IMG/VR virus record: IMGVR_UViG_2690316224_000006
DNA from: a virus
Lineage: Duplodnaviria > Heunggongvirae > Uroviricota > Caudoviricetes
DNA: 7,662 nucleotides
Reading direction: 5' to 3' (one strand)
Shown here: positions 5,673-7,662 of the stretch, piece by piece
How the letters are laid out: each line of letters opens with the position of its first letter
Numbering within the stretch: position 1 is the first letter of the stretch
The notes under the pieces: model-generated
What the model was told of the DNA's origin: nothing
Database searches by the model: none
Seen by the model: only the letters and a program-made list of their open reading frames with translations
Position numbers and translations under genes: made by a program

Positions 5673-6089
5673 TCACCCCCTGAATCCTGCCGGGATCTGG
5701 CTGTAGTCCACGTTGTCGTAACTGGCTTTGAAGTACGGGTCCTCACGTCTGGCTGCAGATACCGCAGGAACTTCCCAGGATTCTTCGAAATGACGATCCG
5801 GACCAAAGAACGTGACAGCCTGTTTCACAAATTGTGTGCCGCTGTTACCCATCGCAGATACCCAGCCCGCGTAGCGTTTCACACCTTCCAGCATGGTTTC
5901 GGGGTTTACCCCCTCATTCAAACGGGCTTTCCAGGCTTTGAAGGCTGCAGATTTTGAATTGCCACCAGCACGTTTGGGATATACCAGCCATGCCTGCTCA
6001 AACTCCGGAGAGTATTCCGGTCGGTTTGAACGAACTCGCACGGACTCATCAACTGATGCACCAACAGCTATTGGTTCATTGACTGGTTC
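5673..6089 (-). CDS. replication initiation protein, C-terminal part (same gene as 6098-6696; broken by an assembly gap and duplicated flank)
   Basis: The open frame runs from the gap to TGA at 5673-5675. Its first 38 aa (RVRSNRPEYSPEFEQAWLVYPKRAGG...NPET) repeat the last residues of the upstream fragment, so the two fragments join in frame if one 197-bp copy plus the Ns is removed, giving about 272 aa in total. Confidence 0.6.
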   Translation of the reverse strand, partial: EPVNEPIAVGASVDESVRVRSNRPEYSPEFEQAWLVYPKRAGGNSKSAAFKAWKARLNEGVNPETMLEGVKRYAGWVSAMGNSGTQFVKQAVTFFGPDRHFEESWEVPAVSAARREDPYFKASYDNVDYSQIPAGFRG

Positions 6090-6294
6090 NNNNNNNNATG
6101 GTTTCGGGGTTTACCCCCTCATTCAAACGGGCTTTCCAGGCTTTGAAGGCTGCAGATTTTGAATTACCACCAGCACGTTTGGGATATGCCAGCCATGCCT
6201 GCTCAAACTCCGGAGAGTATTCCGGCCGGTTTGAACGAACTCGCACGGACTCATCAACTGATGCACCAACAGCTATTGGTTCATTGACTGGTTC
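5893..6294. repeat. 197-bp direct duplication (5893-6089 and 6098-6294, 3 mismatches) flanking an 8-N gap; probable scaffold-join artifact
   Basis: Directly read: the two copies are identical except for three substitutions (g/a, a/g, t/c). The N run at 6090-6097 separates them. Both copies encode the same peptide, with one V/A difference. Confidence 0.9.
6090..6097. other. assembly gap (NNNNNNNN)
   Basis: Eight ambiguous bases inside a coding region. Confidence 0.95.
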
Positions 6295-6696
6295 TTTGAC
6301 TGGTTCAAAAGAGTGACTGGTTCTGGGTGAATCTCCTGCACTACCCCCTGGTGCAACTCCTGCACTACCTGGTGAATTTGCTGCACCAGATAGTGAATTA
6401 TTTGCACTACCCCCTAGTGAATCTCCTGCACCATCCAGATGAAGGAGATAGATATTACTTGAGTTACCTTTTTCACCTTTCCGGGTGACTTTTTTTACCA
6501 GCCCGGACTCACAAAGGGCCGCAATATGATTCATCACAGAACGTTTGCTAATCTCGCACTGGTCAGCAATATGCTGGTAGCTGGGCCAGCACTCACCCTG
6601 ATCGCTGGCATTATCAGCCAGCTTGATCAGAACCAGTTTTCGCAATGGATTACCCACTCGAATTTTCATCGCTTTAACCATCAGCTCCATACTCAT
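6098..6696 (-). CDS. replication initiation protein, N-terminal part (HTH domain plus Gly/Ser/Ala-rich linker), O-like initiator
   Basis: ATG at 6696 is preceded by GGAGGTGCAGC (SD) and overlaps the upstream stop (ATGA). The N-terminus LRKLVLIKLADNASDQGECWPSYQHIADQCEISKRSVMNHIAALCESGLVKK is a typical phage replication-protein HTH of the HTH_36 type. The ORF-track stop at 6076 is an artifact of reading through the Ns. Confidence 0.65.
6285..6431. repeat. iteron-like short direct repeats inside the replication-initiator linker region (candidate origin)
   Basis: TGACTGGTTC occurs at 6285-6294, 6297-6306 and 6314-6323, and again at 6080-6089 in the duplicated copy. GTGAATCTCCTGCAC occurs at 6327-6341 and 6417-6431. 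The motif TGCACTACC(CCCT) recurs at about 6337, 6361 and 6403. A moderately AT-rich stretch follows at about 6440-6480. Confidence 0.35.
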
Positions 6697-6929
6697 GCTG
6701 CACCTCCGAGATGCTTCATGTTTTTTCCGGAGCGAAAGGCTATAAGCGGCATACTGACGCGGTAATTACGGCCAAGCGGTTCACAAATCACCTTCTGGCA
6801 TTCACGGTCAACCAGGCTAACACGTAGAACATGCCCTGCAGGTGTGGTGTACCACTGCCCAACTGTAGGAATTGATATTTTTTTACGCTGAAGTAAACGG
6901 TGAATATTGAGGATCAACGGATTAAGCAT
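6693..6929 (-). CDS. small phage protein, DUF4222-like (78 aa)
   Basis: ATG at 6929 is preceded by GGAGGGCATCGTC (SD) and overlaps the upstream gene by 8 nt. Its stop overlaps the replication gene start (ATGA). The pattern G..Y....G..L.V...(9)...V...(5)...G..Y..S.P...F resembles small prophage DUF4222 proteins as remembered. Confidence 0.5.
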   Translation of the reverse strand: MLNPLILNIHRLLQRKKISIPTVGQWYTTPAGHVLRVSLVDRECQKVICEPLGRNYRVSMPLIAFRSGKNMKHLGGAA

Positions 6930-7566
6930 GACGATGCCCTCCGCTGATATTCAGGAGACGGTGAATATGAAGATTAGCCTTATCCGCCAAACGAATACGT
7001 TCAGCCTGCAAGTTAAGAAGGGTTTCTACCAGAAGTTGATGCGCCTGCGGATCTGAAAGAGTTACCTTGCGCAGAGCACGTAGTGCTGTTGTTACATAAC
7101 TGAGTTTATGTAAGTCTTCATCATTCAGACGAGTGAGGGCTGGGACAGTAGCCATGATGGCAGCCTCCTTGATCGGTGAAATACTTCCACCACCGGAAAC
7201 GCCAATTTCGCTGGTGGTGAACTGAACGGGGTTGGCGTAACCGGTGATCAAGGAAACCGGCGCATCTTTCGATGCCCCCGCCCAGCCCACCATAACTTTG
7301 ATGTGAGCAAATGCGGACGATAAAAAAGACGCTGGCGCGTCATATATCGCCTTGATCAATTCCAGGACGCCAATCCCGGCACCCGCTTTATAAGGTGCCT
7401 GAACAGTGTAACGTCCCGGAATGGCAGAATCAATGTGCTGGTGGTCCTTCACACTCAACAAAATCACGCCTGAATTTCCACAAAGGACTAAAGCACTCAT
7501 GCGGGTAGTCTTTGCGAAGATAGATAACGCGCTGTGTTTCTGGCTCCCAACGAATAACATGAACAT
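6922..7566 (-). CDS. hypothetical phage early protein (214 aa from ATG at 7566; the ORF extends to GTG at 7623); possible Rossmann-like fold
   Basis: A long minus-strand ORF in the same operon. The ATG at 7566 is preceded by GAAGAGGACTTT (SD, about 5 nt spacing), while the GTG at 7623 has no SD. Gly-rich loops (KAGAGIGV, GVSGGGSIS) and a PVSLITGYA segment give a weak resemblance to DprA/SLOG-type nucleotide-binding folds. No confident family assignment. Confidence 0.5.
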   Translation of the reverse strand: MFMLFVGSQKHSALSIFAKTTRMSALVLCGNSGVILLSVKDHQHIDSAIPGRYTVQAPYKAGAGIGVLELIKAIYDAPASFLSSAFAHIKVMVGWAGASKDAPVSLITGYANPVQFTTSEIGVSGGGSISPIKEAAIMATVPALTRLNDEDLHKLSYVTTALRALRKVTLSDPQAHQLLVETLLNLQAERIRLADKANLHIHRLLNISGGHRHA

Positions 7567-7662
7567 AAAGTCCTCTTCCGTCACTAAACCAGCGGTTAAG
7601 TTCCTGCACAACTCGCCCCCCACAGTCAGGTAAAGTTCTCTGTGGTTACTTACAGCCAGGTG

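Follow-up and report, generated by a model that had tools for sequence, protein, structure and literature searches.

Iterons situated within the initiator gene are textbook knowledge for bacteriophages lambda and P22. In lambda, four annotated 18-bp dyad iterons lie at codons 117–145 of gene O, spaced 20/24/23, and are followed by a tract of 26% GC; in P22, a rep_origin is annotated at codons 117–165 of gene 18. The initiators of lambda, P22 and L each bind different iterons within their own coding regions (PMC8022706), and the number of iterons also varies, with four in lambda and six in the O-type origins of Shiga toxin (Stx) phages (PMC7466680). The locus described here lies on a 7,662-nt stretch of viral DNA (IMG/VR record IMGVR_UViG_2690316224_000006), the whole of which is called the window below. 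It consists of an array of dyad-symmetric iterons followed by a nearly invariant block of sequence, both inside a phage initiator gene. Judged from its sequence and layout, the region 6276–6432 is probably the replication origin of a temperate prophage of the SfV type ('Eru6'), located within its own initiator gene as oriLambda is.

A first-pass annotation of the window had drawn attention to three copies of the 10-mer TGACTGGTTC, 12 and 17 nt apart, and to longer repeats in the linker-coding part of a helix-turn-helix (HTH) initiator gene, and had taken them for iterons marking a candidate origin. The repeats are all present: TGACTGGTTC occurs exactly at 6285, 6297 and 6314, with a fourth copy at 6080 in a duplicated contig end, GTGAATCTCCTGCAC occurs twice, at 6327 and 6417, and TGCACTACC occurs three times, at 6337, 6361 and 6403. 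The longer repeats can be broken down into five dyad-symmetric sites, each of 17 bp and of the form RGTGMA-N5-TKCACY, at 6326, 6350, 6371, 6392 and 6416 (6326–6432); this pattern was written after the sites had been seen, and a chance figure for it is not independent. The sites follow one another at 24, 21, 21 and 24 bp. As this spacing is close to two helical turns, the iterons are on one face of the DNA. The tandem-repeat analysis that had been proposed gave a 24-nt unit in 4.6 copies at 6327–6431 and a 12-nt unit in 2.6 copies at 6277–6307 (Tandem Repeats Finder). The repeats occupy codons 89–141 of the initiator gene, between the HTH_36 domain (residues 17–67) and the C-terminal domain, and this segment of the protein is of low complexity and predicted as coil in a low-confidence model. 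With at least three dyad-symmetric sites, two-turn phasing and a position between the DNA-binding and C-terminal domains, the region shares these three features with a lambda-type origin. The first-pass reading thus held for iteron-like cis elements in the initiator gene with a layout like that of oriLambda, but not for the TGACTGGTTC copies, which lie in a separate block and are not likely iterons. The likely initiator-binding iterons are instead the 17-bp dyads of 6326–6432. Single-strand folding of the array showed modest structure derived from the dyads, with a z-score of about -2.2, and Rfam gave no RNA family overlapping the repeat region. The coordinates of the features are collected in Table 1.

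Table 1. Features of the window, with the iteron sequences of the window and its relatives
Feature	Position	Strand	Details
Iteron 1	6416–6432	-	coding strand GGTGCAGGAGATTCACT
Iteron 2	6392–6408	-	coding strand AGTGCAAATAATTCACT
Iteron 3	6371–6387	-	coding strand GGTGCAGCAAATTCACC
Iteron 4	6350–6366	-	coding strand AGTGCAGGAGTTGCACC
Iteron 5	6326–6342	-	coding strand AGTGCAGGAGATTCACC; end 1 nt short of the invariant block
Invariant block, putative origin core	6276–6324	-	coding strand AGAACCAGTCAC TCTTTT GAACCAGTCAAA GAACCAGTCAAT GAACCAA
TGACTGGTTC copy 1	6285–6294	+	read E-P-V; extra unit specific to the SfV/ST64B lineage
TGACTGGTTC copy 2	6297–6306	+	read E-P-V
TGACTGGTTC copy 3	6314–6323	+	read R-T-S-H
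Initiator gene, 5' part (codons 1–199, right-hand contig)	6098–6696	-	ATG at 6696–6694; from translation
Initiator gene, 3' part (codons 135–272 and stop, left-hand contig)	5673–6089	-	from collapse of the overlap; PHROG 270
Coding region of the HTH_36 winged-helix DNA-binding domain (residues 17–67)	6496–6648	-	Pfam PF13730, E 1.8e-11
Run of 8 N, scaffold gap	6090–6097		
Allele A of the 197-nt segment, assembly artefact	5893–6089		3 mismatches to 6098–6294
Allele B of the 197-nt segment	6098–6294		100% identity to Stx2c phages
Iteron of the window, SfV and AsXd-1			AGTGCAGGAGATTCACC
Iteron of F403			GGGGCAGGAGCTGCCCC
Iteron of Klebsiella			ATGCCACCAGATGGCAC
Iteron of Vibrio D67			AGTGAY-N5-TGTCACC
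Iteron of Erwinia and Izhakiella			GGTGACACAGAGTCACC
Iteron of one group of Pseudomonas			GGGGCGGCAGATAACCC
Iteron of another group of Pseudomonas			GTAGGCCCAGAAAGCAC

A comparison with the origin regions of related phages, also proposed in the first-pass annotation, places the array much as the lambda iterons are placed in O and the P22 rep_origin in gene 18. In oriLambda and the O-type origins of Stx phages 933W and P27, as in the window, dyad iterons (18 bp in lambda, 17 bp in the window) recur at a spacing of about two turns in the linker of the initiator gene, after the N-terminal DNA-binding domain; as in the family of the window, the copy number is variable and the C-terminal domain is exchangeable (PMC7466680). 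Lambda differs in that its initiator has a Phage_rep_O domain, whereas that of the window has HTH_36, and in that its 26%-GC tract takes the place of an invariant block of about 43% GC held at a fixed distance of 1 nt. Unlike lambda, the SfV-type module also has no P-like loader gene 3' of the initiator. The origin in P22 gene 18 and the one proposed in gene 18 of phage L are likewise intragenic, with an iteron sequence for each initiator type (PMC8022706), but P22 gp18 has a Phage_rep_O domain, different repeats and an A+T-rich run, and it has no GAACCAGTCA block. In layout, the difference from lambda is a variable specificity array coupled in fixed register to an invariant core that resists host codon bias across several bacterial orders.

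The arrangement is shared by the relatives of the window. A tblastn search of a phage collection found initiator homologues with identities between about 30% and 100%, of which 17 were fetched, and every homologue sharing the N-terminal domain carries the array and the block in the linker directly after that domain. Those with array and block are SfV, cdtI, ST64B, Aeromonas AsXd-1, Vibrio D67, D68 and phiV039C, the Stx phages F403 and EH2085, Klebsiella ST15-VIM1phi2.1 and Pectobacterium ZF40. Over more than 100 related loci, which span Enterobacterales, Vibrio, Aeromonas, Shewanella, Haemophilus and Pseudomonas, the layout is present in every gene readable through its linker, usually with 3–8 phased dyad iterons and with the end of the array 1 nt before the block. 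The first-pass annotation had suggested looking for homologues without the repeats; all those readable through the linker have them. Among 55 loci, the iterons are spaced 21 (78 times), 24 (60 times), 22 (17 times) or 23 nt (16 times) apart, the interval closest to the block is 24 except in two arrays (25 in L137 and 23 in L139), and the array always ends 1 nt before AGAACC. The number of iterons differs between related phages, with eight in cdtI against five in SfV, and seven in EH2085 against three in F403. A scan of viral contigs with the whole initiator protein as query returned near-identical E. coli copies only and was uninformative on divergence.

The low-complexity character of residues 89–141, their low-confidence coil prediction and the different copy numbers of close relatives would also be expected if the repeats were a by-product of replication slippage in a disordered Gly/Ser/Ala/Pro linker, with no function in the DNA. 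The first-pass annotation had itself raised mere codon repetition as a possibility. Several properties of the arrays contradict it. The spacings of 23 and 22 come as adjacent pairs that sum to 45, so that one spacing of the pair puts an iteron out of frame and the other brings the frame back; in locus L105, one DNA motif is read both as PSENSAP and as VVKEFHH. In loci L121, L131 and L116, iterons are inverted relative to their neighbours. The peptides encoded by the different iteron classes are unrelated (GGSAGDSP, PSDRMSP, PPMPSDGT, GGAGADR and VGPEST), yet the length, symmetry, phasing and register of the iterons are constant across the classes. In the window, the TGACTGGTTC copy at 6314 is read one frame off those at 6285 and 6297. 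The conserved spacing of 21/24 or 23+22, the shifted frames, the inversions and the class-specific peptides argue against codon repetition, and together with the dyad symmetry and the two-turn phasing they leave slippage a very improbable explanation.

A further argument against slippage comes from co-variation of the iterons with the protein. The recognition helix presumably lies at about residues 51–63 of the initiator, as placed from secondary structure predicted by AlphaFold2 at low confidence and from general HTH topology; the alignment-free prediction had a mean predicted local distance difference test score of 42.6 and gives a rough secondary-structure pattern only. The distance between iteron arms correlated with the distance between these presumed recognition helices (Mantel rho 0.45, p 0.0005), in a test that makes no correction for shared ancestry. 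The correlation with the wing was lower (rho 0.15), and that with the conserved first 29 residues, which served as an internal control, was absent (rho -0.04).

The block that follows the array contains the 10-mer copies, which read GAACCAGTCA on the coding strand. With at most one mismatch, TGACTGGTTC has four matches in the window where 0.45 are expected, and four were reached in 0 of 200 shuffles. In the family, the last dyad is followed, at a distance of 1 nt, by a block of almost constant sequence, AGAACCAGTCACTCTTTTGAACCAGTCAAnGAACC, in which the 10-mer stands twice, 17 nt apart. The family-wide core of 35 nt corresponds to 6290–6324; the window and SfV have one extra 12-nt unit, from which the third 10-mer copy of SfV and ST64B comes. 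The block of the window contains four GAACC repeats, 17, 12 and 12 nt apart from start to start. Its best-conserved positions across the family are the two GAACCAGTCA copies, and its variable positions are the TCTTTT spacer and the codon after the second copy.

The conservation of the block was measured in eight homologues that had been picked by protein similarity and not by the nucleotides of the block. Where the amino acid is the same, the codon is identical in 95.6% of pairs in the block as against 40.2% in the N-terminal domain, whose best 13-codon window reaches 52%; the nucleotide identity is 0.89 and 0.63, respectively. For a second unbiased set, the query against viral contigs was restricted to the first 89 residues of a family member from Pseudomonas; this gave 60 distinct loci, all of which retain the block with at most 6 mismatches in 35. 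In the 19 loci from high-GC hosts, the GC content at third codon positions (GC3) is 0.30 in the block and 0.85 in the N-terminal domain, and the overall GC is 0.46 in the block and 0.70 just upstream, which makes the block a relative low-GC island. These results show that the invariant block is constrained at the nucleotide level. An exact 27-mer of the block was found at 45 loci when one genome per bacterial species was considered, in genera that include Pseudomonas, Xenorhabdus, Photorhabdus, Photobacterium, Shewanella, Haemophilus, Microbulbifer, Providencia, Proteus, Erwinia and Enterobacter. At all of these loci the block belongs to an HTH initiator gene, in which it is read in the PRTSHSFEPV frame, and a dyad array precedes it wherever upstream sequence exists.

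More distant members retain parts of the block. In mEp013 it is degenerate (AACCAGTCA..AACCAGT). The distant homologue in the Pseudomonas phage PotUPM1 (L097, gene 1216–2079) is 34% identical over the N-terminal domain. It carries about six CCCCCGCAG-N-TGCACC repeats and, after them, four GAACC motifs spaced 11 to 12 nt apart. These motifs look like a degenerate block, which suggests that the GAACC periodicity is its ancient core. Vibrio D96a, which has a different type of N-terminal domain, is without the block, yet it has five dyads, one of them frame-shifted.

The position of the block offers another explanation for its conservation, because it sits at the junction at which C-terminal domains are exchanged. 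F403, ZF40 and SfV have a common N-terminal domain and different C-termini. Vibrio D67 (L085) and D96a (L094) have a nearly identical C-terminal half and unrelated N-terminal domains and iterons. The block could accordingly be a patch of homology for recombination between N- and C-terminal modules, or the peptide PRTSHSFEPVNEP that it encodes could be a protein-interaction motif, in either case with no role in initiation. This peptide is conserved, and part of the conservation may therefore be at the protein level. A peptide motif leaves unexplained, however, the 96% codon identity at synonymous sites and the GC3 of 0.30 in genes of GC3 0.85, and recombination alone is unlikely to have kept 27–35 nt identical across prophages of Pseudomonas, Haemophilus, Shewanella and E. 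coli. Array and block seem, in addition, to act jointly, given their fixed register of 1 nt. A block without a part in initiation is for these reasons unlikely, if by no means far-fetched. The reading of the block as a core for opening or loading, rather than as a recombination patch or a peptide-driven feature, is itself tentative.

Because the block is independent of the iteron class, of the C-terminal domain and of the helicase strategy, it points to a strand-opening role or to a common factor. It showed no single-strand structure on either strand (z +0.5 and +0.8), which fits strand opening and is not proof of it. Either the most conserved part of the initiator or a conserved host factor could read the core of the block, as a single-strand recognition site or as an entry element for the helicase. 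As a conjecture with somewhat less than even support, AGAACCAGTCACTCTTTTGAACCAGTCAAnGAACC may be an unrecognised sequence-specific origin core in temperate phages of many gammaproteobacterial orders. If so, the origins of the family would consist of two parts, a variable specificity array and a universal core.

In the mechanism that we propose, dimers of the N-terminal winged-helix domain would bind the five 17-bp dyads, as the dyad symmetry and the co-variation with the recognition helix suggest. The phased iterons, whose spacing is observed, would then carry an O-some-like nucleoprotein complex. More speculatively, this complex may destabilise the adjoining block with its 3–4 GAACC(AGTCA) direct repeats, and the block would be where the strands open, where the helicase enters or where a conserved factor acts. 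Going by annotation and domain homology, the exchangeable C-terminal domain would finally recruit a helicase; the domain is DnaD-like here, and a gene for a DnaB-type helicase follows in relatives. No helicase or loader gene adjoins the initiator in the SfV-type module of the window, and the helicase recruited in SfV-type phages would for this reason presumably be that of the host.

The same dyads could be bound by the initiator for a different purpose, such as autoregulation, copy control or the exclusion of related phages by roadblock or titration, with the origin situated elsewhere. The dyads, their phasing and the co-variation with the recognition helix fit control sites equally, iterons with control roles are known in plasmids (PMC4980987), and no AT-rich unwinding tract is evident in the window. 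Against control sites stand the equivalent intragenic iterons of lambda, P22 and L, which are the origin (PMC7466680, PMC8022706 and the rep_origin annotation of P22), and the fixed 1-nt coupling of the array to a DNA-constrained block, which would be needless for a roadblock. We regard a purely regulatory role with an origin elsewhere as improbable.

Apart from the conserved peptide of the block, several results weigh against the origin assignment. There is no strong AT-rich tract beside the iterons in the window, where the GC content of the adjoining 60 nt is 0.43–0.47; the tract after the lambda iterons has a GC content of 0.26, as compared with about 0.43 over the block. Scans for DnaA boxes, integration host factor sites, oriC 13-mers and GATC found nothing at the element; over 6098–6760 there was no integration host factor site and no DnaA box, only one DnaA-box-like site with one mismatch, which lies outside the array. 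A scan of 6100–6760 for sigma-70 promoters found no site, and TTGACT inside the repeats, which resembles a -35 element, was rejected as a promoter on this basis. Phage_rep_O (PF04492), the family that lambda O and P22 gp18 match by Pfam, has no match in the protein of the window or in six relatives, which match HTH_36 only. Homology of the N-terminal domain to lambda O or P22 gp18 was likewise not supported by BLASTP against gp18 (E 5.3) or by hhalign (2% probability for lambda O and gp18). Rfam gave no RNA family overlapping the repeat region.

The relationship to the lambda and P22 initiators can be followed in other parts of the proteins. Pfam gave no C-terminal family in common with lambda O or P22 gp18, and a published HHpred result that ties lambda O to HTH_36 (PMC5509034) was not reproduced here. 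The block-bearing gp14 of ZF40 aligns with P22 gp18 over nearly its full length (BLASTP E 1e-6), with its repeat-bearing linker opposite the P22 origin, and the C-terminus of mEp013 matches that of gp18 (BLASTP E 1e-12). Both mEp013 and ZF40 join the present N-terminal domain to a C-terminus like that of P22 gp18. In the relatives, the initiator gene comes directly after cI/cro/cII and is followed by genes for DnaB-like helicases; ZF40 and phiV039C have the DnaB-like helicase gene 3' of the initiator, like P22. The family thus appears to consist of O-like initiators in function and genome position, with a DNA-binding domain that is different or very divergent and with exchangeable C-terminal domains.

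Iteron plasmids (RK2 oriV, pPS10 and F/RepE) resemble the window in having phased iterons beside an element with short direct repeats, the 13-mers. Plasmid Rep proteins bind the 13-mers of the unwinding element sequence-specifically as single-stranded DNA (PMC4980987), and the GAACC(AGTCA) repeats could, by analogy, be recognised in this way. The plasmid origins differ in being intergenic, usually with DnaA boxes and with direct-repeat iterons that are bound by monomers, whereas the window has intragenic dyads. The DnaA boxes and intergenic position that characterise RK2 and pPS10 are absent from the element of the window.

No origin is annotated at this site in any of the listed phage records that match the window or its initiator, Stx phages included. 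Full-text searches of the accessible literature found no description of the repeats, the block or the origin of the family, although a prior mention is possible. The genes themselves are the same as those in the 'Eru6' and 'Eru5' modules of a typing scheme for Stx phages (PMC8951638). The module here corresponds to 'Eru6', the window being 98.6% identical to the type phage Stx2a_WGPS2, and F403 is the Eru5 type. That paper mentions the HTH_36 proteins and types modules by gene content; a search of its text gave no instance of 'repeats', and no 'origin' passage among those displayed was on a replication origin. A located origin would be a target for studying how phages with an initiator and no loader gene recruit the helicase of the host. 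The iteron class would predict groups of replication specificity and therefore which co-resident prophages may interfere. The 27-mer of the block is a simple tag for finding such origins in genomes, and the element would explain a recurrent spot of breakage in short-read assemblies of prophages.

The initiator gene was reconstructed from the two contigs of the window. A single open reading frame (ORF) of 272 codons (6696 to 6098, then 5892 to 5673) results once the 197-nt overlap between the contigs is collapsed, and the protein of 272 amino acids is 100% identical to orf39 of Shigella phage SfV, annotated as 'replication protein', and to its homologue in Stx2c-converting phages. The DNA of 6098–6696 is 100% identical to Stx2c phages and 98.5% identical to SfV. 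Residues 17–67 match Pfam HTH_36, and the whole protein matches phrog_270, 'replication initiation protein' (E 1.7e-88); there is also a match to phrog_8540 (E 7.8e-62). The N-terminal half matches PHROGs annotated as 'replication initiation O-like' and the C-terminal half a PHROG annotated as 'DnaD-like helicase loader', the C-terminal matches beginning at residues 135–155. With its HTH_36 domain and its PHROG initiator match, the protein belongs with the HTH_36 'O-like' phage initiators (PHROG 270, 8540 and 391). A sequence search of the Protein Data Bank gave no meaningful match.

Related genes are found in Stx phages, including Stx2c phages, Phi24B and Min27, and in cdtI, and the 197-nt segment of the initiator gene is present in 920 of 5,426 complete E. 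coli genomes. The initiator is also carried by non-mobilizable circular 'plasmids' of about 40 kb from E. coli, Klebsiella, Microbulbifer, Shewanella and Arsenophonus (10 records). These are probably episomal or induced phage genomes that were deposited as plasmids, and as a sign of initiator-dependent replication they are only suggestive.

The same-strand neighbours of the initiator gene agree with the early-right operon of SfV. On the 5' side there are an Ash-family regulator and an ORF of 78 amino acids, and on the 3' side genes for PerC-like, Dam, LexA-like, RusA, KilA-N, DUF968/HNH and Q proteins. The 78-amino acid ORF (PHROG 1153, unknown function; 6693–6929, minus strand) overlaps the start codon of the initiator by 4 nt (6693–6696) and is conserved in SfV, cdtI and Stx2c phages; the overlap and its conservation suggest that the two genes may be translationally coupled. 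Rfam matches to the C4 antisense RNA (7210–7297, minus strand, 82 bits) and to the Hfq-binding small RNA isrK (7322–7398, minus strand, 64 bits) fall within the long ORF 6922–7623 that bears the Ash domain. Because the PHROG matches of this ORF begin only at residues 58–111, its 5' part probably represents the RNA genes of a C4-controlled antirepressor module like those of P1 and P7 rather than coding sequence. An antisense terminator-like hairpin with a T-run at 6473–6488 (plus strand) inside the initiator gene is at chance level (1 found, 0.5 expected).

The duplication of the 197-nt segment in the window is an artefact of assembly, since the segment is single-copy in complete phage genomes and the pieces of the window map to overlapping coordinates there. 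The first-pass annotation had noted, correctly, that the contig break falls at a copy of TGACTGGTTC, and had taken the repeats as its likely cause. Position 6089, where the left contig ends, is indeed the final base of such a copy, and public contigs often end inside arrays of this kind (L113, L122, L138, L140, L144, L170, L171, L173, L174 and L199). However, the contig ends overlap by 197 nt with three mismatches (5961/6166, 5983/6188 and 6021/6226), and each allele is bounded 68 nt outside its outermost mismatch (5961 - 68 = 5893 and 6021 + 68 = 6089; 6166 - 68 = 6098 and 6226 + 68 = 6294). Such bounds are those of the branches of a bubble in a de Bruijn graph with k - 1 = 68 (k = 69). The exact repeat units here are only 10–12 nt long, too short to confuse k-mers of 69. 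Each of the two alleles also occurs in nature. At the left contig end, identity to Stx2c phages is 99.5%, and other E. coli genomes contain the 197-nt allele of this end with 100% identity; in some E. coli genomes, two or three places match the segment. The break is therefore due to two alleles, from two prophages or a mixed population, and a break caused by the repeats is highly improbable in the window. As the ends are set by the bubble geometry, the end of the contig on a TGACTGGTTC copy is a coincidence. Elsewhere in the family, assemblies of prophages break recurrently at the arrays, above all at the perfect 21-nt ones of the F403 type. The records of the Salmonella phages SF10 and Si3 also start or stop within the array or at the block.

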